A DNA stretch of 24,989 nucleotides, from IMG/VR virus record IMGVR_UViG_2619619133_000007. One strand, given 5' to 3'. How positions within the stretch are numbered: position 1 is the first letter of the stretch; every line of letters begins with the position of its first letter. Below the pieces are notes generated by a model. It saw only the letters and a list, made by a program, of their open reading frames with translations. It ran no database searches and was not told the DNA's origin. Source of the DNA: a virus (taxonomy: Duplodnaviria; Heunggongvirae; Uroviricota; Caudoviricetes). The position numbers were made by a program, and so were the translations under genes. Below are positions 4,752 to 23,909 of this stretch, in pieces.

Positions 4752-4906
4752 ACAGCTCCCCGTTTATTATTTATCTCCTCAGCCAGCCGCTGTGCTTTCA
4801 GGGGATTTCGGGTAACAGAAAGGCCGGGAAATACCCAGCCTCGCTTTGTAACGGAGTAGACGAAAGTGATCGCGCCTACCCGGATATTATCGTGAGGATG
4901 CTTCAT
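4724..4906 (-). CDS. Small early-left protein, lambda orf60a-like
   Basis: ORF 4724..4912; second Met gives the 60-aa lambda-length product overlapping exo stop by 4 nt. Confidence 0.6.
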
Positions 4907-5583
4907 CGCCATTGCTCCCCAAATACAAAACCAATTTCAGCCAGTGCCTCGTCCATTTTTTCGATGAACTCCGGCACCATCTCGTCAAAACTCGCCATGT
5001 ACTTTTCATCCCGCTCAACCACGACATAATGCAGGCCTTCACGCTTCATACGCGGGTCATAGTTGGCAAAGTACCAGGCATCTTTTCGCGTCACCCACAT
5101 GCTGTACTGCACCTGGGCCATGTAAGCCGACTTTATGGCCTCGAAACCACCGAGCCGGAACTTCATGAAATCCCGGGAGGTAAACGGGCATTTCAGCTCA
5201 AGGCCATTGCCGTCACTGCATAAACCATCGGGAGAGCAGGCGGTGCGCATACTTTCGTCGCGATAGATGATCGGGGATTCAATAACATTTACGCCGGAAG
5301 TGAACTCAAACAGGGTTCTGGCGTCGTTCTCGTACTGTTTTCCCCAGGCCAGCGCTTTAGCGTTAACTTCCGGAGCCACACCGGTGCAAACCTCAGCCAG
5401 CAGGGTGTGGAAGTAGGACATTTTCATGTCAGGCCACTTCTTTCCTGATCGGGGCTTTGCTATCACGTTGTGAACTTCTGAAGCGGTGATGACGCCGAGC
5501 CGTAATTTGTGCCATGCATCATCCCCCTGTTCGACAGCTCTCACGTCGATCCCGGTACGCTGCAGGATAATGTCCGGTGTCAT
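4903..5583 (-). CDS. exo: Lambda exonuclease (Red-alpha)
   Basis: 226-aa ORF near-identical to remembered lambda Exo. Confidence 0.95.
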
Positions 5584-6365
5584 GCTGCCACCTTCTGCTC
5601 AGTGGCTTTCTGTTTCAGGAATCCAAGAGCTTTCACTGCTTCGGCCTGTGTCAGTTCTGACGATGCGCGAATGTCGCGGCGAAATATCTGGGAACAGAGC
5701 GGCAATAAGTCGTCATCCCATGTTTTATCCAGGGCGATCAGCAGAGTGTTAATCTCCTGCATGGTTTCATCGTTAACCGGAGTGATGTCGCGTTCTGGCT
5801 GACGTTCTGCAGTGTATGCAGTATTTTCGACAATGCGCTCGGCTTCATCCTTGTCATAGATACCAGCAAATCCGAAGGCCAGACGGGCACACTGAATCAT
5901 GGCTTTATGCCGTAACATCCGTTTGGGATGCGACTGCCACGGCCCCGTGATTTCTCTGCCTTCGCGAGTTTTGAATGGTTCGCGGCGGCATTCATCCATC
6001 CATTCGGTAACGCAGATCGGATGATTACGGTCCTTGCGGTAAATCCGGCATGTACAGGATTCATTGTTCTGCTCAAAGTCCATGCCATCAAACTGCTGGT
6101 TTTCATTGATGATGCGGGACCAGCCATCAACGCCCACCACCGGAACGATGCCGTTCTGCTTATCAGGGAAGGCGTAAATTTCTTTCGTCCACGGATTAAG
6201 GCCGTACTGGTTGGCGACGATCAACAATGCGATGAACTGCGCATCGCTGGCATCACCTTTAAATGCCGTCTGGCGAAGAGTGGTGATCAGTTCCTGTGGG
6301 TCGACAGAATCCATGCCGACACGTTCAGCCAGCTTCCCTGCCAGCGTTGCGAGTGCTGTACTCAT
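5580..6365 (-). CDS. bet: Bet single-strand annealing protein (Red-beta)
   Basis: 261-aa ORF matching lambda Bet ([59 protein letters not shown]...). Confidence 0.95.
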
Positions 6366-6370
6366 CCGTT

Positions 6371-6667
6371 TTATACCTCTGAATCAATATCAACCTGGTG
6401 GTGAGCAATGGTTTCAACCATGTACTGGATGTGTTCTGCCATGCGCTCCTGAAACTCAACATCGTCATCAAACGCACGGGTAATGGCTTTTTTGCTGGCC
6501 CCGTGGCGTTGCAAATGATCGATGCATAGCGATTCAAACAGGTGCTGGGGCAGGCCTTTTTCCATGTCGTCTGCCAGTTCTGCCTCTTTCTCTTCACGGG
6601 CGATCTGCTGGTAGTGACGCGCCCAGCTCTGAGCCTCAAGACGATCCTGAATGTAATAAGCGTTCAT
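6371..6667 (-). CDS. gam: Gam, RecBCD inhibitor (98-aa short form only)
   Basis: Matches lambda GamS; good RBS (AGGAGG); upstream in-frame region has no start codon before a stop, so no long GamL form. Confidence 0.9.
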
Positions 6668-6742: not shown

Positions 6743-7033
6743 TTAGTGATTCAGGCCGTTACCGCGTCCGTCGAGAAAAACTTCCACGAGCAAATCACGG
6801 GTATAAGTGCGCTCGATGCCGCGATGCAGATAAAGCCGTCCGCGTAAATTAGCTGATGCAGTCCAGGTACCATCTTTGTGTTTGACCAGCATTCCTGGCA
6901 TGACCGCACCTCGATTAACGGTCTGCGTTCCATAATGTTGATGAACCATAAAAACTCCTGCCCGTAAGCTGGGCTGCTGAACATATAGAGACTTCTGCGC
7001 GTATTCAGGCGGTGGATGGCCGCCGGTTGTCAT
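6743..7033 (-). CDS. Hypothetical protein at the kil position; possibly Kil/KilR-like host cell-division inhibitor; start uncertain (internal Met at about 6949 possible)
   Basis: 96-aa ORF first downstream of the leftward early promoter; motif [20 protein letters not shown] resembles my recollection of prophage KilR-type proteins; an overlapping alternative frame (6751..6984) cannot be excluded. Confidence 0.4.
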
Positions 7034-7226
7034 AACTAAGCCGCCTCGTTGAAGCGACTAAGGTATGAAATGTTGAGTTAATTTCAGCTGGTCACACCGA
7101 CGTTCACGCGTCCGTTTCACCCCTCGCACTCCCCGAAGCCTGCTGAAATTCAAACTGCGGATCTAAGCGGTCATCGCAACGGTGAATCAGGTAGTTGCCG
7201 TATCGTTGTGTTGTTGCGATGAACTT

Positions 7227-7256
7227 ATTTAAAACTATAGTTGTTTTATCGTCAAC
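7227..7256 (-). promoter_or_regulatory. Putative leftward early promoter (PL-like) with overlapping operator repeats
   Basis: On minus strand -35 TTGACG (plus 7251-7256) and -10 TTAAAT (plus 7227-7232); overlapping AAAACAACTATAG and AACAAC/GTTGTT repeats shared with the rightward promoter region. Confidence 0.5.
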
Positions 7257-7392
7257 AACAAAAGTTGTTTTATTGGTTGTTTTAGATATAACTGGTTGTA
7301 TTTAGGATGGATTTATTTTGTGACTTGAATCGCATAGCGATAACTGAAGCGAGGTTATGGTGGTTTTTTTAACGGTGTGTGTGATGAGGGGA

Positions 7393-7423
7393 GGGCAAAA
7401 GAAAACCCGGCACGGTGACCGGG
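7393..7423 (-). terminator. Putative intrinsic terminator downstream of the repressor gene
   Basis: Stem CCCGG-CACGGTGA-CCGGG with TTTTCTTTT on the minus strand. Confidence 0.5.
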
Positions 7424-7544
7424 ATTCTTACGCCGTTAGGTAAAGATATTATTGCGGTGGCTTAATATTACTACCTAGAGCAAAGATAGGAATTAGTTCT
7501 TTACTGAATGAGCACAATGCCCAGTTGATAATTTTTAATTGGTA

Positions 7545-8234
7545 CTACCCATGCTTCCTATATGTCTGCGGCATGCTCCCAATAACCTTACCGAAGATGA
7601 ACACCCGGTTCATCTCGTCTTTCTCGATCGGGTCCCACGGTGAGTAGCTTTTGTTATCAGAGATGACCAGCAGCTTATCCTTCATCATTTGCAGGCGCTT
7701 TACATGGGCTGTGTCGTCGTACAGAAACGCATAGATACCATCACCGTCGAAAGATTTAACTGTGATATCAACGAACAGTAGATCACCTGGTTCGATCGTT
7801 CCTGACATGCTGTCACCACGCACGTTAATGATGCGGATATTTTCCGCCTTCCTACCATCGAACATGTGACGAGCATCGTCAAACGAGTACTCAACCGAGC
7901 GTAGAACTTCTACAAACTCACGGTTGATGACTCCCGGCCCAGCACTGACTTCTATATCAAGAACGTCAATCTTGAAGTATTTGGAATGGCTGACAGTTGA
8001 TTGTATTGGTTGCACTGTACTGTCTGACATATTTCCAACGCCAGAAGATAACCATTCTGCGCGCACACCCAAAGCGTTCGCGATCTCCACGATTTTAGTT
8101 GTTTGATTAGCTTTCCCTGTTTCGATTTTCTGAATAGCAGCCTGGCTAACCCCGACCAAATCCCCAAGCGCCTTTTGTGTAAGGCCTCGCGCTAATCTGG
8201 CTTCTTTAAGTCTTTCTGAGAGTGTTGTTTTCAT
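7545..8234 (-). CDS. CI-type prophage repressor (N-terminal XRE-type HTH, C-terminal S24 LexA-like peptidase domain); not lambda immunity
   Basis: Start taken at internal Met MKTTLSERLKEARLARGLTQKALGDLVG; Ala-Gly cleavage site and GDSM serine motif typical of RecA-stimulated autocleaving repressors; divergent from the adjacent cro-like gene. Confidence 0.8.
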   Translation of the reverse strand: MKTTLSERLKEARLARGLTQKALGDLVGVSQAAIQKIETGKANQTTKIVEIANALGVRAEWLSSGVGNMSDSTVQPIQSTVSHSKYFKIDVLDIEVSAGPGVINREFVEVLRSVEYSFDDARHMFDGRKAENIRIINVRGDSMSGTIEPGDLLFVDITVKSFDGDGIYAFLYDDTAHVKRLQMMKDKLLVISDNKSYSPWDPIEKDEMNRVFIFGKVIGSMPQTYRKHG

Positions 8235-8275
8235 AGTCCAAATGTACAACCAAGGTTTTATTCCATCAAACGAAA

Positions 8276-8311
8276 ATGGTTGTTGACTAAAAACAACCAT
8301 AGTTTTAATCT
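8276..8311 (+). promoter_or_regulatory. Putative rightward early promoter (PR-like) and operator: inverted repeat ATGGTTGTT-N7-AACAACCAT overlapping -35 TTGACT
   Basis: Perfect 9-bp inverted repeat at 8276-8300; -35 TTGACT at 8283-8288, candidate -10 TAATCT at 8306-8311; cro-like gene starts 8339 with GGAGG RBS. Confidence 0.55.
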
Positions 8312-8338
8312 TGATTCAAATTAACCACGGAGGTTGTT

Positions 8339-8569
8339 ATGAACCCAGCTATCAAAACAGCGATCAATATCGTTGGTTCACAAAAGAAACTGGGCGCTGC
8401 TTGCGAAGTTTCACAGCAGGCCGTCTATAAGTGGCTTCACAACAAAGCAAAGGTATCCCCTGAACATGTCGGCAGCATTGTTACGGCTACTGGTGGAGTA
8501 GTGAAGGCATACCAGATTCGCCCGGATCTTCCGAAGTTGTTTCCACACACCGAAAAGAACGCAGCTTAA
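8339..8569 (+). CDS. Cro-like small HTH regulator (YdaS-like)
   Basis: 76-aa ORF divergent from repressor, strong RBS; HTH-like segment LGAACEVSQQAVYKWL. Confidence 0.7.
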   Translation: MNPAIKTAINIVGSQKKLGAACEVSQQAVYKWLHNKAKVSPEHVGSIVTATGGVVKAYQIRPDLPKLFPHTEKNAA

Positions 8570-8638
8570 ATTTCCATTTCACGCTCTTTAACAATAAGCA
8601 ATCAACTTAACAGTCAATTCAAACTAAAGGAGTCAATT

Positions 8639-9178
8639 ATGCAACCACTTACATACCAACAGACTAGCGGATTTAGCCCGACTGCGGTGATAAATCGTTC
8701 TCAAACAAAACAGGTGCCAGGCCACGAAAAAATCCGTGATGCCGTCCGCGCCTGGTCGGCTGTAGATAATCAGGATGTCGTTGCCACACTCATTGTGAAT
8801 GAGTATCGGGAGCAGGGCGGCGGCACCATCGATTTCCCTGATGATGTCAGCCGTGCACGCCAGAAGCTGTTCCGCTTCCTCGATAACAAATTCGATTCTG
8901 AAAAATACCGAAATAACGTGCGTGAACTGACCCCGGCAATTCTGGCGGTACTACCGCTGGAATATCGCGGTTACCTGGTTGAGCAGGATAGCTTCATGGC
9001 TAGGTTGGCTGAAATGGAAAAGGAACTCAGTGAGGCAAAACAGGCTGTCATTCTCAACGCACCACGCCACCAGAAACTGAAGGAAATTAGTGAAGGTATT
9101 GTGTCGATGTTTCGTGTGGACCCAGATCTGGCTGGTCCATTGATGGCGATGGTTACTACCATGCTGGGGGCGATATGA
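8639..9178 (+). CDS. YdaT-family protein (proposed CII functional analogue in Rac-type immunity regions), putative
   Basis: 179-aa ORF directly after cro-like gene with strong RBS (AAGGAG); segments EYREQGGG and TPAILAVLP resemble what I recall of E. coli YdaT; family assignment from memory only. Confidence 0.45.
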   Translation: MQPLTYQQTSGFSPTAVINRSQTKQVPGHEKIRDAVRAWSAVDNQDVVATLIVNEYREQGGGTIDFPDDVSRARQKLFRFLDNKFDSEKYRNNVRELTPAILAVLPLEYRGYLVEQDSFMARLAEMEKELSEAKQAVILNAPRHQKLKEISEGIVSMFRVDPDLAGPLMAMVTTMLGAI

Positions 9179-9264
9179 CAGGTTCAGAAATGGCGAAAGC
9201 CGGTCTGCTGGAACAGAACCGACTTTCAGGTGCAAATCGTAACACACTCATTGCGGGAGGAATT

Positions 9265-10194
9265 ATGGCAAACACTGCTGAGATATTCAATTTTCCAGTG
9301 CCGGATGCGGCACAAAAGGAGCCGCGCGTGGCAGATCTCGATGATGGTTATACGCGCATTGCAAATGAGTTGCTGGAAGCTGTGATGCTGACCGGATTAA
9401 CACAGCACCAGCTTCTGGTCTTTCTGGCTGTCATGCGCAAAACATATGGCTTTAATAAAAGACTGGATTGGGTGAGCAACGAGCAACTTTCCGAATTGAC
9501 CGGGATATTGCCGCACAAGTGTTCTGCTGCAAAAAGCGTTCTGGTAAAGCGTGGGATTCTTATTCAGAGCGGGCGGAATATCGGCATTAATAATGTGGTC
9601 AGTGAATGGTCAACATTACCCGAATCAGGTAAGAAAAATAAAGTTTACCTGAAAGAGGTAAATTTACCTGAATCAGGTAAGAAAAGTTTACCCAAATCAG
9701 GTAAAGGCGTTTACCCGAATCAGGTAAACACAAAAGACAAACTAACAAAAGACAATATAAAACCTTTTTCGTCCGAGAATTCTGGCGAATCCTCTGACCA
9801 GCCAGAAAACGATCTTCCTGTGGTGAAACCGGATGCTGCAATTCAGAGCGGCAGCAAGTGGGGGACAGCAGAAGACCTGACCGCCGCAGAGTGGATGTTT
9901 GACATGGTGAAGACTATCGCACCATCAGCCAGAAAACCGAATTTTGCTGGGTGGGCTAACGATATCCGCCTGATGCGTGAACGTGACGGACGTAACCACC
10001 GCGACATGTGCGTGCTGTTCCGCTGGGCATGCCAGGACAACTTCTGGTCCGGTAACGTGCTGAGCCCGGCCAAACTCCGCGATAAGTGGACCCAACTCGA
10101 AATCAACCGTAACAAGCAACAGGCAGGCGTGATAGCCAGCAAACCAAAACTCGACCTGACGAACACTGACTGGATTTACGGGGTGGAGCTATGA
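9265..10194 (+). CDS. O: Replication initiator O (lambda O-like; divergent N-terminal DNA-binding domain, lambda-identical C-terminal domain)
   Basis: Start at ATG 9265 with GGGAGG RBS; C-terminal ~110 aa match lambda O (SGSKWGTAEDLTAAEWMFDMVKTIAPSARKPNFAGWANDIRLMRERDG...); contains ori iterons. Confidence 0.9.
   Translation: MANTAEIFNFPVPDAAQKEPRVADLDDGYTRIANELLEAVMLTGLTQHQLLVFLAVMRKTYGFNKRLDWVSNEQLSELTGILPHKCSAAKSVLVKRGILIQSGRNIGINNVVSEWSTLPESGKKNKVYLKEVNLPESGKKSLPKSGKGVYPNQVNTKDKLTKDNIKPFSSENSGESSDQPENDLPVVKPDAAIQSGSKWGTAEDLTAAEWMFDMVKTIAPSARKPNFAGWANDIRLMRERDGRNHRDMCVLFRWACQDNFWSGNVLSPAKLRDKWTQLEINRNKQQAGVIASKPKLDLTNTDWIYGVEL
9616..9728. repeat. Origin iterons inside O: five ~19-bp repeats TTTACC(C/T)(G/A)A(A/T)(T/A)(C/G)AGGTAA(A/G), followed by an AT-rich stretch (9729-9770)
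   Basis: Repeats read directly at 9616-9633, 9644-9662, 9663-9681, 9688-9706, 9710-9728; each is an internal inverted repeat; arrangement is analogous to lambda ori but the sequence differs. Confidence 0.85.
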
Positions 10195-10300
10195 AAAACA
10201 TCGCCGCACAGATGGTTAACTTTGACCGTGAGCAGATGCGTCGGATCGCCAACAACATGCCGGAACAGTACGACGAAAAGCCGCAGGTACAACAGGTACA
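10191..10300 (+). pseudogene. P: Truncated replication gene P (first ~36 codons only)
   Basis: [36 protein letters not shown] matches lambda P N-terminus, start overlaps O stop (ATGA); similarity ends near 10298 and the reading frame terminates shortly after. Confidence 0.85.
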
Positions 10301-10630
10301 GGAAAAGACATCATGCTCGGTAAAACGTATACCAAAGCAGAATGCAAAGCACTCTTGAATAAAGACCTTGCCACTGTCGCCAGACAAATTAACCCGTACA
10401 TCAAAGTCGATATACCGGAAACAACGCGCGGCGCTCTTTACTCATTCGTTTACAACGTGGGTGCTGGCAATTTCAGAACATCGACGCTTCTTCGCAAAAT
10501 AAACCAGGGCGATATCAAAGGCGCATGTGATCAGCTACGTCGCTGGACATATGCTGGCGGTAAGCAATGGAAAGGTCTCATGACTCGTCGTGAGATTGAG
10601 CGTGAAATCTGTTTGTGGGGTCAGCAATGA
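10301..10630 (+). pseudogene. N-terminally truncated phage lysozyme (T4-lysozyme-type endolysin, RrrD-like), C-terminal ~105 aa only
   Basis: ORF 10313..10630 matches the C-terminal part of DLP12-type lysozyme as I remember it; the catalytic N-terminal region is absent because of the P/R deletion junction. Confidence 0.75.
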
Positions 10631-11088
10631 ACAGAGTAACCGCGATTATCTCCGCTCTGGTTATCTGCATCATCGTCTGCCTGTCATGGGCTGTTAATCA
10701 TTACCGTGATAACGCCATTACCTACAAAGCCCAGCGCGACAAAAATGCCAGAGAACTGAAGCTGGCGAACGCGGCAATTACTGACATGCAGATGCGTCAG
10801 CGTGATGTTGCTGCGCTCGATGCAAAATACACGAAGGAGTTAGCTGATGCGAAAGCTGAAAATGATGCTCTGCGTGATGATGTTGCCGCTGGTCGTCGTC
10901 GGTTGCACATCAAAGCAGTCTGTCAGTCAGTGCGTGAAGCCACCACCGCCTCCGGCGTGGATAATGCAGCCTCCCCCCGACTGGCAGACACCGCTGAACG
11001 GGATTATTTCACCCTCAGAGAGAGGCTGATCACTATGCAAAAACAACTGGAAGGAACCCAGAAGTATATTAATGAGCAGTGCAGATAG
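10627..11088 (+). CDS. Rz: Rz inner-membrane spanin (i-spanin)
   Basis: 153-aa ORF from ATG 10627 (overlapping lysozyme stop), N-terminal TM helix, coiled-coil body; matches lambda/DLP12 Rz. Confidence 0.9.
10847..11029 (+). CDS. Rz1: Rz1 outer-membrane lipoprotein spanin (o-spanin), embedded in +1 frame of Rz
   Basis: 60-aa ORF with lipobox LVVVGC and proline-rich region, fully nested within Rz. Confidence 0.9.
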
Positions 11089-11119
11089 AGCTGCCCATAT
11101 CGATGGGCAACTCATGCAA

Positions 11120-11413
11120 TTATTGTGAGCAATACACACGCGCTTCCAGCGGAGTATAAATGCCTAAAGTAATAAAACCGAGAAATCCATTTACGAATGT
11201 TTGCTGGGTTTCTGTTTTAACAACATTTTCTGCGCCGCCACAAATTTGGGCTGCATCAACAGTTTTCTCCTGTCCAATTCCCGAAACGAAGAAATGATGG
11301 GTGATGGTTTCCTTTGGTGTTACTGCTGTCGGTTTGTTTCCAACAGTAAACGTCTGTTGAGCACATCCTGTAATAAGCATTGCCAGAGCGGCAGAAAACA
11401 ACATTTTTTTCAT
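11120..11413 (-). CDS. bor: Bor lipoprotein (serum-resistance-associated lysogenic conversion gene)
   Basis: Start at internal Met MKKMLFSAALAMLITGC (lipobox); 97 aa matching lambda Bor. Confidence 0.9.
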   Translation of the reverse strand: MKKMLFSAALAMLITGCAQQTFTVGNKPTAVTPKETITHHFFVSGIGQEKTVDAAQICGGAENVVKTETQQTFVNGFLGFITLGIYTPLEARVYCSQ

Positions 11414-11774
11414 CTTATTATCCTGCATTGTTAAAAACGGCAGAATCCTATGTGACAACAATTAAACGATAGTTAAATGGATTGATGAAAATTAAAACTA
11501 TATAGGTGGATGCTCAGCCTATTGGAGGAGGGGGGGGCACTCAGAATCCTGTGGAATGAAATAAACCGCTCTTTCTGTCCATTACCCTTTTAGCTGCGCT
11601 GTATCGTCGCCGTATTCCCGCATTAACCATGACCGTAGCCCGACGGGGAATTCCTTCTGCGTGAGTGTGCGGGAATAATCAAAAACGATGCACACCGGGT
11701 TTTACTGTGCTGACAGACGCAGGGTTACCCTCATAGTCGCTTTTCCGGTGCGATGGTGGAAGAAACCGGGATGT

Positions 11775-11969
11775 TTATTCATCATCACTCTGGATTGATG
11801 TATATGCTCTCTTTTCTGACGTTAGTCTCCGACGGCAGGCTTCAATGACCCAGGCTGAGAAATTCCCGGACCCTTTTTGCTCAAGAGCGATGTTAATTTG
11901 TTCAATCATTTGGTTAGGAAAGCGGATGTTGCGGGTTGTTGTTCTGCGGGTTCTGTTCTTCGTTGACAT
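11775..11969 (-). CDS. Small putative ribbon-helix-helix DNA-binding protein (YlcI/DUF3950-like)
   Basis: 64-aa ORF MSTKNRTRRTTTRNIRFPNQMIEQINIALEQKGSGNFSAWVIEACRRRL; family from memory. Confidence 0.55.
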   Translation of the reverse strand: MSTKNRTRRTTTRNIRFPNQMIEQINIALEQKGSGNFSAWVIEACRRRLTSEKRAYTSIQSDDE

Positions 11970-12168
11970 GAGGTTGTCCCGTATTCAGTGTCGCTGATTT
12001 GTATTGTCTGAAGTTGTTTTTACGTTAAGTTGATGCAGATCAATTAATATGATACCTGCGTCATAATTGATTATTTGACGTGGTTTGATGGCGTAGATGC
12101 ACGTTGTGACATGCAGATGATAATTATTATCATTTTGCGGGTCCTTTCCGGCGATCCGACAGGTTACG

Positions 12169-12180
12169 GGGCGGCGACCT
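12169..12180. other. cos: cosN cohesive-end sequence GGGCGGCGACCT (whole cos region about 12100-12360, cosQ upstream, cosB downstream)
   Basis: Sequence identical to the lambda genome termini: ...GGTTACG / GGGCGGCGACCTCGCGGGTTTTCGCTATTTATGAAAATTTTCCGG... Confidence 0.9.
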
Positions 12181-12357
12181 CGCGGGTTTTCGCTATTTAT
12201 GAAAATTTTCCGGTTTAAGGCATTTCCGTTCTTCTTCGTCGTAACTTAATGTTTTTATTTAAAATACCCCCTGAAAAGAAAGGAAACGACAGGTGCTGAA
12301 AACGAGCTTTTGGGCCTCTGTCGTTTCCTTTCTCTGTTTTTGGCCGTGGAATGAACA

Positions 12358-12877
12358 ATGGAAGTCAACAAAAAGCAGCTGGCTGACATTTTCGGTGCGA
12401 GTATCCGTACCATTCAGAACTGGCAGGAACAGGGAATGCCCGTTCTGCGAGGCGGTGGCAAGGGTAATGAGGTGCTTTATGATTCTGCCGCCGTCATAAG
12501 ATGGTATGCCGAAAGGGATGCTGAAATTGAGAACGAAAAGCTGCGCCGGGAAGTTGAAGAACTGCGGCAGGCCAGCGAGACAGATCTCCAGCCAGGGACT
12601 ATTGAGTACGAACGCCATCGACTTACGCGTGCGCAGGCCGACGCACAGGAGCTGAAAAATGCCAGAGACTCCGCTGAAGTGGTGGAAACCGCATTCTGTA
12701 CTTTCGTGCTGTCGCGGATCGCAGGTGAAATTGCCAGTATTCTCGACGGGATCCCCCTGTCGGTGCAGCGGCGTTTTCCGGAACTGGAAAACCGACATGT
12801 TGATTTCCTGAAACGGGATATCATCAAAGCCATGAACAAAGCAGCCGCGCTGGATGAACTGATACCGGGGTTGCTGA

Positions 12878-12903
<26 letters not shown>
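12358..12903 (+). CDS. nu1: Terminase small subunit Nu1
   Basis: 181-aa ORF matching lambda Nu1. Confidence 0.95.
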
Positions 12904-16584
<3,681 letters not shown>

Positions 16585-16604
<20 letters not shown>

Positions 16605-17904
16605 TCTCCCGCATATTGCCAGCATGGCCTTTAATGAGCCGCTGATGCTTGAACCCGCCTATGCGCGGGTTTTCTTTTGTGCGCTTGCAGGCCAGCTTGG
16701 GATCAGCCGCCTGACAGATGCGGTGTCCGGTGACAGCCTGACTGCCCCGGAGGCACCCGCGACGCTGGCGTTATCCGGTGATGATGACGGACCACGACAG
16801 GCCCGCAGTTATCAGGTCATGAACGGCATCGCCGTGCTGCCGGTGTCCGGCACGCTGGTCAGCCGGACGCGAGCGCTGCAGCCGTATTCGGGGATGACCG
16901 GTTACAACGGCATTATCGCCCGTCTGCAACAGGCTGCCAGCGACCCGATGGTGGACGGCATTCTGCTCGATATGGATACGCCAGGCGGGATGGTGGCAGG
17001 GGCATTTGACTGCGCTGACATCATCGCCCGTGTGCGTGACATAAAGCCGGTATGGGCGCTGGCCAATGACATGAACTGCAGTGCAGGGCAGCTGCTTGCC
17101 AGCGCCGCCTCCCGGCGTCTGGTCACGCAGACCGCCCGGACAGGCTCCATCGGCGTCATGATGGCTCACAGTAATTACGGTGCTGCGCTGGAGAAACAGG
17201 GCGTGGAAATCACGCTGATTTACAGCGGCAGCCATAAGGTGGATGGCAACCCCTACAGCCATCTTCCGGATGACGTCCGGGAGACACTGCAGTCCCGGAT
17301 GGATGCAACCCGCCAGATGTTTGCGCAGAAGGTGTCGGCATATACCGGCCTGTCCGTGCAGGCTGTGCTGGATACCGAGGCTGCAGTGTACAGCGGTCAG
17401 GAGGCCATTGATGCCGGACTGGCTGATGAACTTGTCAACAGCACCGATGCGATCACCGTTATGCGTGATGCACTGGATGCACGTAAATCCCGTCTCTCAG
17501 GAGGGCGAATGACCAAAGAGACTCAATCAACAACTGTTTCAGCCACTGCTTCGCAGGCTGACGTTACTGGCGTGGTGCAAGCGACGGAGGGCGAGAACGC
17601 CAGCGCGGCGCAGCCGGACGTGAACGCGCAGATCACCGCAGCGGTTGCGGCAGAAAACAGTCGCATTATGGGGATCCTCAACTGTGAGGAGGCTCACGGA
17701 CGCGAAGAACAGGCTCGCGTGCTGGCCGAAACCCCCGGTATGACCGTGGAAACGGCCCGCCGCATTCTGGCCGCAGCACCACAGAGTGCACAGGCGCGCA
17801 GTGACACTGCGCTGGATCGTCTGATGCAGGGGGCACCGGCACCGCTGGCTGCAGGTAACCCGGCATCTGATGCCGTTAACGATTTGCTGAACACACCAGT
17901 GTAA
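16585..17904 (+). CDS. C: Head maturation protease/scaffold C (GTG start overlapping end of B)
   Basis: 439-aa product from GTG at 16585 matches lambda gpC (MTAELRNLPHIASMAFNEPLMLEPAYARVFF...); the ORF track extends it upstream artefactually. Confidence 0.9.
17299..17904 (+). CDS. nu3: Scaffolding protein Nu3 (in-frame internal start within C)
   Basis: In-frame ATG at 17299 giving the C-terminal 201 codons of C, as in lambda Nu3; start position inferred by analogy. Confidence 0.6.
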   Translation: MDATRQMFAQKVSAYTGLSVQAVLDTEAAVYSGQEAIDAGLADELVNSTDAITVMRDALDARKSRLSGGRMTKETQSTTVSATASQADVTGVVQATEGENASAAQPDVNAQITAAVAAENSRIMGILNCEEAHGREEQARVLAETPGMTVETARRILAAAPQSAQARSDTALDRLMQGAPAPLAAGNPASDAVNDLLNTPV

Positions 17905-20140: not shown

Positions 20141-20680
20141 ATGGCCATAAAAGGTCTTGAGCAGGCCATTGAAAACCTCAGCCGTATCAGCAAAACGGCG
20201 GTGCCTGGTGCCGCCGCAATGGCCATTAACCGCGTTGCTTCATCCGCGATATCGCAGTCGGCGTCACAGGTTGCCCGTGAGACAAAGGTACGCCGGAAAC
20301 TGGTAAAGGAAAGGGCCAGGCTGAAAAGGGCCACGGTCAAAAATCCGCAGGCCAGAATCAAAGTTAACCGGGGGGATTTGCCCGTAATCAAGCTGGGTAA
20401 TGCGCGGGTTGTCCTGTCCCGCCGCAGGCGTCGTAAAAAGGGGCAGCGTTCATCCCTGAAAGGTGGCGGCAGCGTGCTTGTGGTGGGTAACCGTCGTATT
20501 CCCGGCGCGTTTATTCAGCAACTGAAAAATGGCCGGTGGCATGTCATGCAGCGTGTGGCCGGGAAAAACCGTTACCCCATTGATGTGGTGAAAATCCCGA
20601 TGGCGGTGCCGCTGACCACGGCGTTTAAACAGAATATTGAACGGATACGGCGTGAACGTCTTCCGAAAGAGCTGGGCTAA
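20141..20680 (+). pseudogene. Z: Tail gene Z, C-terminally truncated (179 aa versus ~192) at a deletion junction
   Basis: Matches lambda gpZ up to ...RERLPKELG, then a stop; downstream sequence is J-derived. Confidence 0.75.
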
Positions 20681-20796
20681 CCGAATCTCATCTCGGCAAG
20701 GAGCTGCTGGAAAAAGTCGATCTGACGGAGGATAACGCCAGCAGACTGGATGAGTTTTCGAAAGAGTGGAAGGACGCTAACGATAAATGGAATGCC

Positions 20797-23328
20797 ATGT
20801 GGGGCGTCAAAATTGAGCAGACCAAAGACGGCAAACATTATGTCGCGGGTATTGGCCTCAGCATGGAGGACACGGAGGAAGGCAAGCTGAGCCAGTTTCT
20901 GGTTGCCGCTAACCGTATCGCGTTTATTGACCCGGCAAACGGGAATGAAACGCCGATGTTTGTGGCGCAGGGCAACCAGATATTCATGAACGACGTGTTC
21001 CTGAAGCGCCTGACGGCCCCCACCATTACCAGCGGTGGCAGTCCTCCGGTATTTTCCCTGACATCAGACGGAAAGCTGACCGCTAAAAATGCGGATATCA
21101 GTGGCAGTGTGAATGCGAACTCAGGAACGCTCAACAATGTCACGATTAACCAGAACTGTACGATTAAGGGCATGCTGGAGGCGACCCAGGTCAGAGGGGA
21201 TTTCGTTAAAGCTGTATCAAAAGCCTTCCCGAAAAAAGTCGGTACGTGGGGTAACACGGAAACACCAAACGGTACGGTTATTGCATCCGCCGTGGCGCTT
21301 GAGGATGCGAGCACGACGAAAAAGGGGATAGTACAGCTCAGCAGTGCGACCAACAGCACTTCCGAGTCACTGGCGGCAACGCCAAAGGCAGTAAAAGCAG
21401 CCTATGACAATGCAGAGAAACGTCTGCAGAAAGACCAGAACGGCGCTGATATACCCGATAAGGTACGCTTCCTGAACAACATTAACGCGGTCAGTAAAAC
21501 AGACTTTGCTGATAAGCGTGGTATGCGTTATGTGCGGGTTAACGCTCCTGCAGGTGCAACATCTGGAAAATATTACCCTGTTGTTGTTATGCGTTCTGCT
21601 GGCTCAGTAAGCGAACTGGCATCAAGGGTCATTATCACCACGGCAACGCGAACCGCAGGCGATCCGATGAATAACTGCGAGTTTAACGGATTTGTTATGC
21701 CTGGTGGCTGGACTGACAGGGGGCGTTATGCTTATGGAATGTTCTGGCAATATCAAAACAATGAACGAGCCATCCACTCAATAATGATGAGTAATAAGGG
21801 CGATGATTTGCGCTCTGTGTTCTATGTTGATGGCGCTGCTTTCCCTGTTTTTGCGTTCATCGAAGATGGCCTGTCAATATCCGCACCTGGTGCTGATCTC
21901 GTTGTTAATGATACGACCTATAAGTTTGGGGCAACAAATCCAGCGACTGAATGTATCGCGGCGGACGTTATCCTTGATTTTAAGAGTGGGCGTGGTTTTT
22001 ATGAGTCCCATTCGTTAATCGTTAACGATAACTTGTCGTGCAAAAAACTTTTTGCCACAGACGAAATTGTAGCGCGTGGTGGTAATCAGATTCGAATGAT
22101 AGGTGGGGAGTATGGTGCATTATGGCGTAATGATGGCGCTAAAACTTACCTGCTGCTTACCAATCAAGGTGATGTTTATGGTGGATGGAATACATTAAGA
22201 CCGTTTGTTATTGATAACGCAACCGGCGAACTGGTTATTGGAACCAAACTGTCTGCAAGTCTGAACGGTAACGCATTGACAGCAACAAAGCTGCAAACGC
22301 CAAGACTGGTTTCTGGTGTTGAGTTTGATGGTTCCAAAGATATTACTTTAACCGCCGCGCATGTGGCTGCTTTTGCCAGAAGGGCAACGGATACATATGC
22401 CGATGCGGATGGTGGCGTTCCCTGGAATGCCGAATCAGGCGCTTACAATGTCACCCGCTCTGGCAACAGCTATATTCTGGTTAACTTCTATACCGGAGTC
22501 GGAAGTTGCCGGACCCTGCAGATGAAGGCGCATTACAGAAATGGTGGTCTGTTCTACCGTTCTTCAAGAGACGGTTATGGTTTTGAGGAAGACTGGGCAG
22601 AAGTTTATACCTCGAAAAATCTTCCACCAGAAAGCTACCCAGTCGGCGCACCAATCCCGTGGCCATCAGATACCGTTCCGTCTGGTTATGCCCTGATGCA
22701 GGGGCAGACTTTTGACAAATCTGCCTACCCGAAACTTGCAGCCGCTTATCCGTCAGGCGTGATCCCTGATATGCGTGGCTGGACGATTAAGGGCAAACCT
22801 GCCAGTGGTCGGGCCGTATTGTCTCAGGAACAGGACGGCATTAAATCGCATACCCACAGCGCCAGCGCATCCAGTACGGATTTGGGGACGAAAACCACAT
22901 CGTCGTTTGATTACGGAACCAAATCCACGAATAACACCGGGGCGCATACCCATAGTATTAGCGGGATCGCAAATAGTGCCGGTGCGCACCAACACAAGAG
23001 TTCCGGTGCATTTGGTGGCACGAACACGAGCATTTTCCCTAATGGTTATACCGCGATTTCAAATCTAAGCGCGGGGATTATGAGCACAACAAGCGGTAGT
23101 GGCCAGACTCGTAATGCAGGGAAGACATCATCAGATGGTGCTCATACCCACTCGCTGTCCGGCACTGCTGCAAGCGCAGGCGCACATGCACATACTGTCG
23201 GTATTGGTGCTCATACGCACTCCGTTGCGATTGGTTCACATGGACACACCATCACCGTTAACGCTGCTGGTAACGCGGAAAACACCGTCAAAAACATCGC
23301 ATTTAACTATATTGTGAGGCTTGCATAA
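20797..23328 (+). CDS. Chimeric tail fibre protein: J (host-specificity protein) C-terminal-region fragment fused in frame to a side-tail-fibre (Stf-like) body with His-rich (HxH) C-terminal domain; open frame extends upstream to 20656 without ATG
   Basis: First ~145 aa match the lambda J region (...[28 protein letters not shown]...NCTI.G.L....GD.VKA.S.AFP); from [39 protein letters not shown] onward it is Stf-like, ending in the lambda Stf C-terminus (...[30 protein letters not shown]). Confidence 0.7.
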
Positions 23329-23909
23329 TGGCATTCAGAATGAGTGAACAACCACGGACCATAAAAATTTATAATCTGCTGGCCGGAACTAATGAATTTA
23401 TTGGTGAAGGTGATGCATATATTCCGCCTCATACAGGTCTGCCAGCAAACAGTACCGATATTGCACCGCCAGATATTCCGGCTGGCTTCGTGGCTGTTTT
23501 CAACAGTGATGAGTCATCGTGGCATCTCGTTGAAGATCATCGGGGTAAAACGGTTTATGACGTGGCTTCCGGCGACGCGTTATTTATTTCTGAACTCGGT
23601 CCGTTACCGGAAAATGTTACCTGGTTATCGCCGGAAGGGGAGTTTCAGAAGTGGAACGGCACAGCCTGGGTGAAGGATACGGAAGCAGAAAAACTGTTCC
23701 GGATCCGGGAGGCGGAAGAAACAAAAAACAACCTGATGCAGGTAGCCAGTGAGCATATTGCGCCGCTTCAGGATGCTGCAGATCTGGAAATTGCAACGGA
23801 GGAAGAAATCTCGTTGCTGGAAGCATGGAAAAAGTATCGGGTATTGCTGAACCGTGTTGATACGTCAACTGCACAGGATATTGAATGGCCAGTAGCACCT
23901 ATAGGGTAA
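23328..23909 (+). CDS. tfa: Tail fibre assembly protein Tfa
   Basis: 193-aa ORF overlapping stf stop (TAATG), matches lambda Tfa. Confidence 0.9.

Follow-up and report, generated by a model that had tools for sequence, protein, structure and literature searches.

A conserved non-coding RNA element in the PL leader of N-less lambdoid prophages is a candidate cis-acting antiterminator

The window, by which we mean the whole 24,989-nt stretch of DNA that was analysed, is a deleted lambda-like E. coli prophage of the N-less, Bievrevirus type. Its minus-strand genes include exo (4903-5583), bet (5580-6365), gam (6371-6667) and kil (6743-6949), the last encoding a 68-aa KilR/phi80-type cell-division inhibitor (PHROG 294, E = 1e-38). 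A gene for an S24/HTH repressor follows at 7545-8234, and the plus strand carries a YdaS-type cro (8339-8569), a YdaT-type cII-like gene (8639-9178) and O (9175-10194). Over positions 6950-7560, identity to the complete phage PhiR34_1 is 100%; that phage has 59 annotated genes, and N is absent. Compared with PhiR34_1 the prophage is defective, with deletions that map to window positions 10297 and 20679-20948; the missing segments are PhiR34_1 8056-17279, which takes in ren, the nin region, Q and S together with most of P and the 5' portion of R, and ~27662-37487, which spans the tail genes from Z to J. At the gathering threshold, a search of the whole window with Rfam 15 returned only IS009 (RF02111), a full-length match of 220.9 bits at 23671-23869 on the plus strand, in or adjoining the tail-fibre assembly region.

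A PL-type sigma-70 promoter is present on the minus strand at 7227-7255, with a -35 element TTGACG (7255-7250), a 17-nt spacer and a -10 element TTAAAT (7232-7227); the predicted +1 is near A7220. The promoter sits within AAAACAAC/GTTGTT operator repeats that extend to ~7300, and the PR promoter/operator at 8283-8320 is a near-copy of it. Prophages with three other operator sets align to the window at the -35 and -10 elements, and homology across immunity types starts at 7219-7220. Together, the PR-like duplicate and this onset of homology indicate that the promoter is PL and that 7034-7220 is the PL leader. The first conserved protein gene of the operon is kil, which has an AGGAG Shine-Dalgarno sequence at 6959-6955. 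Its frame is open from an upstream ATG (6743-7033), but ATG 7033 is probably not the true start: PGAP starts Kil at ATG 6949, giving a 207-nt gene, in IAI1 and O157. With this start, the untranslated leader may reach ~270 nt. On the other side of PL, the slot between cI and PL holds accessory or defence genes in relatives (L002 3481-4909, L006 1049-2650 and L007 1144-2792: GevA/GevT toxin-antitoxin, a SIR2-family protein, and ImmA/IrrE with DUF4411) and rexAB in lambda; in the window it holds only a terminator at 7423-7406.

The initial annotation had described the ~190 nt downstream of the promoter as a non-coding leader of an N-less lambdoid prophage, and the promoter and ORF analyses bear this out. 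There is no ORF of at least 60 aa in 7034-7226. The sole frame in the leader is a 31-codon TTG ORF (7153-7058, minus strand), which encodes the arginine-rich sequence KRTRERR and is not conserved as a frame. No N-like protein or family was detected with Pfam and PHROGs among the ORFs of the window or in complete PhiR34_1, and a search for an N-like ORF that might have been overlooked found none.

We named the core of the leader, 7086-7169 on the minus strand, the E element. On comparative evidence from sequence, the E element is a conserved non-coding RNA family with two subfamilies, E1 and E2. The E1 form found in the window is present in 2222 of the 5426 complete E. coli genomes (~40%), and none of the records examined annotates it. 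In 16 named E. coli phages whose repressors differ, the leader has 94-100% identity, and carriers of E1 include the viable phages PhiR34_1, Perceval, D2 and 4A7. A divergent copy was first met in locus L113, in a profile search of the collected loci; a pattern search places this second subfamily, E2, in 15 IMG/VR contigs, where it is 82% identical to E1 over ~95 nt. E2 hosts include bacteria other than E. coli, and no E2 copy was found in named phages or in complete E. coli genomes. While E1 lies behind 3-4 PL types and E2 behind 8 PL/operator types, the element is promoter-proximal in every case.

A covariance model of the E family (R2) scores 131 bits on the window over 7074-7180. Each phage has one E copy, and R2 finds no second copy in the PR/right operon. 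It should also be noted that R2 weakly matches the side tail fibre gene of PhiR34_1 (L144 39573-39659, plus strand; 25 bits, E ~8e-4), probably by chance. Rfam matches with E values up to 10 over 6900-7600 were at chance level (mir-216, CRISPR-DR16 and similar), and nothing relevant was returned for the E2 loci. No description of the E element was found in the literature covered, which did not extend to King et al. 2011 (PMC3187212). A Kil-anchored search of GTDB returned prophages of Citrobacter, Kluyvera, Silvania and Enterobacter with a non-homologous leader between PL and kil, which is of no use for covariation.

We used RNAalifold to obtain a consensus structure from an alignment of 20 sequences (A4). 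The predicted consensus consists of two adjacent irregular stem-loops that span 84 nt and lie ~40-60 nt past the transcription start. SL-I (7169-7125, minus strand; A4 columns 12-56) has an irregular stem and the invariant loop AAUUUCAG at 7150-7143. SL-II (7124-7086, minus strand; columns 57-95) has an irregular stem, in which a G.G mismatch is conserved, and an apical loop that differs in sequence but not in length between E1 and E2. Three pairs are compensatory between the subfamilies, counted on the same alignment from which the structure was predicted and with effectively two lineages, so that each covarying pair represents one evolutionary event: columns 25-44 (window 7156/7137, AU/CG) and the adjacent columns 26-43 (7155/7138, GC/AU) in SL-I, and columns 70-81 (7111/7100, AU/GC) in SL-II. 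Three more pairs have single changes compatible with wobble pairing, including columns 66-85 in SL-II (AU/GU). SL-I contains no broken pair apart from one U.U cell, 99.5% of cells are paired in the A4 fold, and all slid controls gave 0 compensatory pairs. The consensus sequences of E1 and E2 differ at 16 columns, 7 of them paired, and none of these differences breaks a pair (simulated P = 2e-4). The G.U pairs form only on the PL-sense strand, indicating that this is the strand that folds.

A different fold had been put forward in the initial annotation, namely a 9-bp long-range helix enclosing smaller hairpins. The complementarity itself is present, pairing AAUUUCAGC at 7150-7142 with GCUGAAAUU, and can be extended by GG/CC past an A.A mismatch; the second arm, however, lies at 7088-7080 and not at 7082-7090 as first given. 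As the fold of the leader, the helix is not supported: covariation favours the two stem-loops, in which AAUUUCAG is a hairpin loop, and the arms of the helix never covary. Across the 20 sequences, seven core pairs never vary, wobble pairing is kept at two single changes and one variant repairs the A.A mismatch, with 0 compensatory changes. The helix cannot form together with the upper part of SL-I or the base of SL-II. For E1 and E2a, the energies of the two folds lie within 1-2 kcal/mol of each other, whereas the two-stem-loop fold is 6 kcal/mol better for E2b. A perfect helix of at least 9 bp is found in 6.5% of dinucleotide shuffles, and one of at least 10 bp in 2%. Because the helix lacks covariation and is nearly equal in energy, and because SL-I is transcribed first, we read it as an alternative state or a loop-to-tail contact. 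The small hairpin GACG-CGUGAA-CGUC of the same annotation is recovered at 7112-7099, where it forms part of the apex of SL-II.

Folding of the minus-strand transcript, which the initial annotation had suggested as a check, gave a divided answer. Taken whole, the 189-nt leader has ordinary stability (z = -0.54), but three sub-domains have z scores between -2.4 and -3.0 (7078-7155, -2.4; 7168-7224, -2.8; 6990-7072, -3.0). A further helix seen in single-sequence folds, P2 (CUUCG with CGAGG), was unsupported by variants and was discarded. Upstream of the core, E1 leaders have a specific 5'-terminal hairpin, hairpin A (7171-7222, minus strand), with a 10-bp stem that pairs 7222-7213 with 7180-7171 and is reduced to 8 bp with a +1 at 7220. 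CAACAACACAAC (7216-7205) lies in its loop, which is rich in C and A. The fold of hairpin A has a z score of -2.8 (1/200 shuffles), and variants at stem positions 2-3 are wobble-compatible. Other sequence takes the place of its 5' arm in O157-type prophages and in E2, so hairpin A lies outside the conserved core.

At the 3' end of the leader, hairpin C (7030-7068, minus strand) pairs AGUCGCUUC (7059-7051) with GAGGCGGCU (7047-7039) and is extended by UCAUA (7068-7064) with UAUGA (7034-7030). It occludes GAGG (7047-7044) and AUG 7033, and is more stable than shuffled sequences (z = -3.0, 0/200 shuffles). The stem shows compensation in ENT1 (AGCAAC/GUUGCU), in phi80 (AGUCA/UGGCU) and in many IMG/VR contigs. 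The same junction is found in phi80, where it lies downstream of N, in ENT1, in HK639 and in more than 100 IMG/VR contigs, usually after an intrinsic terminator and before diverse ORFs that start with MTTGGHPP. Judged from these contexts, hairpin C marks a mosaic joint that is generic to the early-left operons of lambdoid phages and masks a translation start, and it is separate from E. The adjoining segment ATGACAACCGGCGGCCATCCACCG (7031-7007), which encodes MTTGGHPP and in many copies a polyproline run, keeps its nucleotide sequence while opening unrelated ORFs, of 21 aa in phi80, 43 aa in ENT1 and 171 aa in HK639; in the window it is fused to kil. This segment has a GGCGG...CCGCC hairpin of its own.

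Several other leader units were seen in the collected loci. Citrobacter/Kluyvera prophages (L011 and L014-L017, ~2330-2500) have a different ORF-less leader between PL and kil, in which a long-range helix GUGAGCUUCGCGGUGGUG...CACCACCAGCGAAGUUCAC surrounds a hairpin and varies in a wobble-compatible manner. Silvania and Enterobacter TMH lack this domain of ~100 nt. The Citrobacter/Kluyvera leader is matched by neither the put model nor the E model and could be yet another leader cassette. A G-rich, ORF-less stretch of ~400 nt lies between cassette and first gene in L153 (4680-5075) and in phi80 (L008 ~1080-730, minus strand). It is common in part to phi80, where it is upstream of N, and to E2a, and ends at the conserved junction ...CGCCAAAGCATTTC...GGGTAACGACAGAGGGTAAGGGGATG; in E2a it is preceded by a 3-codon mini-ORF (MKH) with a strong Shine-Dalgarno sequence. 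Rfam gave no match to this stretch at the gathering threshold. Another recurrent short unit lies upstream of the CATACC junction in L060, L096, L110, L111, L138, L032 and L049, and consists of repeated operator-like TTGACTGTGGAA or TTTAACCGTGGAA followed by CACGCGCCGGGCGTGGCTAAACATCCCGGCAC and an intrinsic terminator. Its layout resembles that of a small terminated RNA or of an attenuated leader.

A set of 129 loci with a common 5' leader, ATCGAAACGAAACATCGACAGCTGAG, reveals how the E element is placed relative to known antitermination devices. After ...GCCAGCGGCG, three continuations are seen in these loci: phi80-type boxA/nutL with N further on (~77/129, including phi80), canonical putL (40/129, including HK639) and E2 (12/129, including L146). 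Both put and E2 have GAAGUGGAG as their left flank and, in one sub-type, UUACCAGCAGCUC as their right flank. E2 is found behind the PL of phi80 itself (L150 and L151) and behind that of HK639 (L148 and L157). Conversely, L033 and L036 have canonical putL directly upstream of the window-type CATACC-hairpin C-ATGACAACC junction, followed in L033 by Kil (78% identity) and Exo (87%). These swaps between common flanks indicate that E occupies, to the nucleotide, the slot of both known early antitermination devices. The put-like position proposed in the initial annotation is thus upheld, as putL or nutL with N fills this slot in relatives that have the same promoter, 5' leader and downstream junction.

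In every E2 locus with enough DNA, strong intrinsic terminators lie 0.7-1.9 kb downstream of the element; L113 has three, all upstream of kil, bet and exo. In the window, four intrinsic-terminator-like sites lie on the minus strand between the exo/recombination genes and xis/int (4245-4231, 2962-2943, 2928-2915 and 2735-2716). The genes that follow E2 are variable accessory genes that differ by locus (an HNH endonuclease, a TerB-like protein and unknowns), and there is no N-like ORF among them. Overall, the E core occurs in three contexts: before the kil junction, before the mini-ORF and 400-nt leader, or before HK639-type sequence and accessory genes.

We compared the leader directly with put and nut sites. 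A put model (R1) was built from seven sequences, six putL (HK022, HK639, CobraSix, S9-5, phiEt88 and UPF_BP1) and HK022 putR. With this model, putL sites reach 90-101 bits and putR sites 41-46 bits, including two putR sites on which it was not trained (E ~1e-9). With filters off, the best R1 score on the window and all E-type loci was 1.4 bits, and a BLAST search with the HK022 put regions found no similarity to the leader. The homology to put RNAs that the initial annotation had suggested looking for is therefore not seen. Its alternative, a nut-site remnant, fares no better: 7034-7226 contains no boxA (CGCUCUUUA) even with up to 3 mismatches, no boxB-like pentaloop hairpin was found in the leader, and N is absent. 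Similarity to the leader/N region of phi80 is limited to the 3' junction and, weakly, the first 20 nt. In the right operon, a perfect rrn/P22-type boxA, CGCTCTTTAACAA, lies on the plus strand at 8582-8594 between cro and the YdaT-type cII-like gene, which is the nutR position. It is the only perfect boxA in the window and is not followed by a boxB-like hairpin, which suggests that antitermination in that operon is N-independent and relies on Nus factors alone.

We consider it an even call that the E element is a cis-acting RNA, probably of a new family unrelated to put, that promotes early processive antitermination. In this proposal, E RNA, like HK022 put, would act in cis on the same RNA polymerase molecule that transcribed it. 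The elongation complex would then become resistant to terminators further along the early-left operon, allowing distal early-left genes to be expressed without N protein. In E2 prophages, kil and the recombination genes would also depend on read-through. HK022-type put suppresses both intrinsic and Rho-dependent terminators in cis with no phage protein, and its action is blocked by mutations that affect the zinc-binding domain encoded by rpoC. With no likeness to put in sequence or model, this mechanism cannot be transferred to E by homology; that E RNA modifies polymerase and suppresses termination is inferred. The proposal draws on the natural swaps, the coupling to PL, the lack of N, the terminators downstream, the pattern of changes in paired columns and the abundance of the element. 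However, E1 phages have no terminator between the element and kil-gam-bet-exo, so the need for antitermination is less obvious there.

Other explanations for the conservation of E have to be weighed against this proposal. The element might be a nut-like site, not self-sufficient, at which an unrecognised polymerase-modifying protein of the phage or host is recruited. In phi80-type contexts E replaces nutL along with N, the invariant single-stranded GACCGCUUAGA, AAUUUCAG and GGGGAGUGCGA could bind a protein, and the perfect rrn-type boxA after cro implies that Nus factors are probably used in the right operon. However, the early genes include neither an N-like nor any other antiterminator family, those after E2 vary by locus, the leader lacks boxA and a boxB-like pentaloop hairpin, and E swaps precisely with put, a protein-independent element; we judge a recruitment site unlikely. 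Slightly harder to credit is a 5'-UTR device of the ordinary kind, which would leave termination unaffected and would stabilise the PL transcript, guide its processing or adjust translation of the first downstream gene. That the core is flanked by a 5' hairpin (7222-7171) and by a hairpin that occludes a Shine-Dalgarno sequence and AUG (7068-7030) would suit such a device, as would the lack of a terminator ahead of kil-exo in E1 phages. The core is nevertheless tied to PL and not to one downstream gene, and it fills the slot of two known antitermination devices. For a coding function, in which the core would specify a short N-like ARM peptide rich in arginine, made by itself or as an extension at the N terminus of Kil, the chances are close to nil. 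KRTRERR in ORF 7153-7058 does resemble an N-type arginine-rich motif, an internal GTG has GGAG 8 nt upstream and is ATG in 6 variants, and in many relatives the 31-codon frame continues into kil, which is then annotated as 128 or 139 aa. Yet E2 interrupts the ARM frames with TGA and GTG-TAA, E1 variants have 1-nt and 5-nt insertions in the ORF and alternate TAG with CAG at 7060-7058, the ORF matches no protein family, and a seemingly synonymous AAA/AAG change fits an A-U to G.U change in SL-II equally well. We dropped the peptide reading on account of these E2 stops and E1 indels.

Prophage-encoded antagonists of the host sRNA GcvB are known (PMC4104026), and the leader, or a processed 5' fragment of it, could act as a GcvB sponge like the prophage anti-sRNA AgvB. 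The sequence CAACAACACAAC (7216-7205, minus strand) is a perfect 12-nt complement of GcvB R1 (nt 72-83), corresponds to nt 5-16 of the predicted PL transcript, and is the only such 12-mer in the 25-kb window. However, this box is found only in E1, in most copies, and is absent from O157-type E1 variants and from E2, leaving the conserved core unexplained; moreover, 7034-7226 contains no terminator-like site to end a short RNA, and C/A-rich tracts are common. We regard a sponge as very unlikely, and identity with AgvB was dropped because AgvB maps to a PR' accessory-gene site and not to PL (PMC4104026). A functionless E, left over from the loss of N and only seemingly conserved because a young kil-gam-bet-exo module recombines as a block, is equally hard to entertain. 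It would accord with the 94-100% identity of E1 copies, the equal conservation of neighbouring coding sequence and the non-significant fold of the whole leader. Against this, the E2 core is 82% identical to E1 yet has unrelated flanks, 8 promoter types and non-E. coli hosts, differences between E1 and E2 respect base pairing, and the core has no similarity to the N/nutL region of phi80.

Returning to E as a cis-acting antiterminator, a broader claim follows, which we offer tentatively as possible but short of probable: E may be a second class of RNA that makes bacterial RNA polymerase terminator-resistant without a dedicated protein, structurally unrelated to put, interchangeable as a cassette with put and nut/N, and present in ~40% of sequenced E. 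coli strains. To our knowledge, no RNA-only processive antiterminators have been described besides put and EAR, and put alone offers a structural model of a nascent RNA that reprograms RNA polymerase. If the claim is true, E would be an independent answer to the problem solved by put and would reveal surfaces of RNA polymerase that are open to RNA. It would also explain delayed-early expression and excision in common N-less E. coli prophages, including those of ST131, STEC and commensal strains. The three covarying pairs already define test mutants, and the natural chimeras are ready controls.

EAR RNA, from the eps operons of Bacillus, is the other RNA-only processive antiterminator known. 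Like E, it is a structured cis RNA within an operon, and it is thought to give terminator read-through; the two are unrelated in organism, sequence and position, EAR being intergenic inside its operon and E promoter-proximal, and E has no Rfam match. The GcvB sponges AgvB and SroC (PMC4104026) share with the 5' end of E1 a prophage-borne, C/A-rich box complementary to the GcvB R1 seed, whereas the E1 leader is not a discrete terminated sRNA, lies at another position in the prophage and has an unrelated core. The nutL site and N of lambda, phi80 and P22 occupy the same slot between PL and the early-left genes, and PL and the 5' leader of phi80 occur joined to either nutL with N or E. Unlike these systems, E has no boxA, boxB-type hairpin or N gene, and its arginine-rich ORF is not conserved. 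The put RNAs of HK022, HK639, HK75 and others are cis-acting antiterminators that bind the zinc-binding domain of beta' (PMC9378689). They differ from E in sequence, in covariance model and in their invariant motifs, and their signature, GAACGGCGCG...UAAACCAUGCGUCGG...GGCGGG.UCAGGA.GA.CGGCAAU, is missing from E. In other respects the two are alike: both are non-coding and lie just past PL in N-less lambdoid phages, the E core ~50 nt after the predicted +1; both are similar in size (~75 nt for put, ~85 nt for E). The two bulged stem-loops of put, ~70 nt, may have a counterpart in the two adjacent irregular stem-loops predicted for E from two lineages, which compete with a fold of nearly equal energy. 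E phages have a left-operon copy only, as do HK639 and CobraSix, which have no putR, so that a right-operon copy does not tell E from put. The cassettes put and E are exchangeable between identical flanks with terminators downstream.
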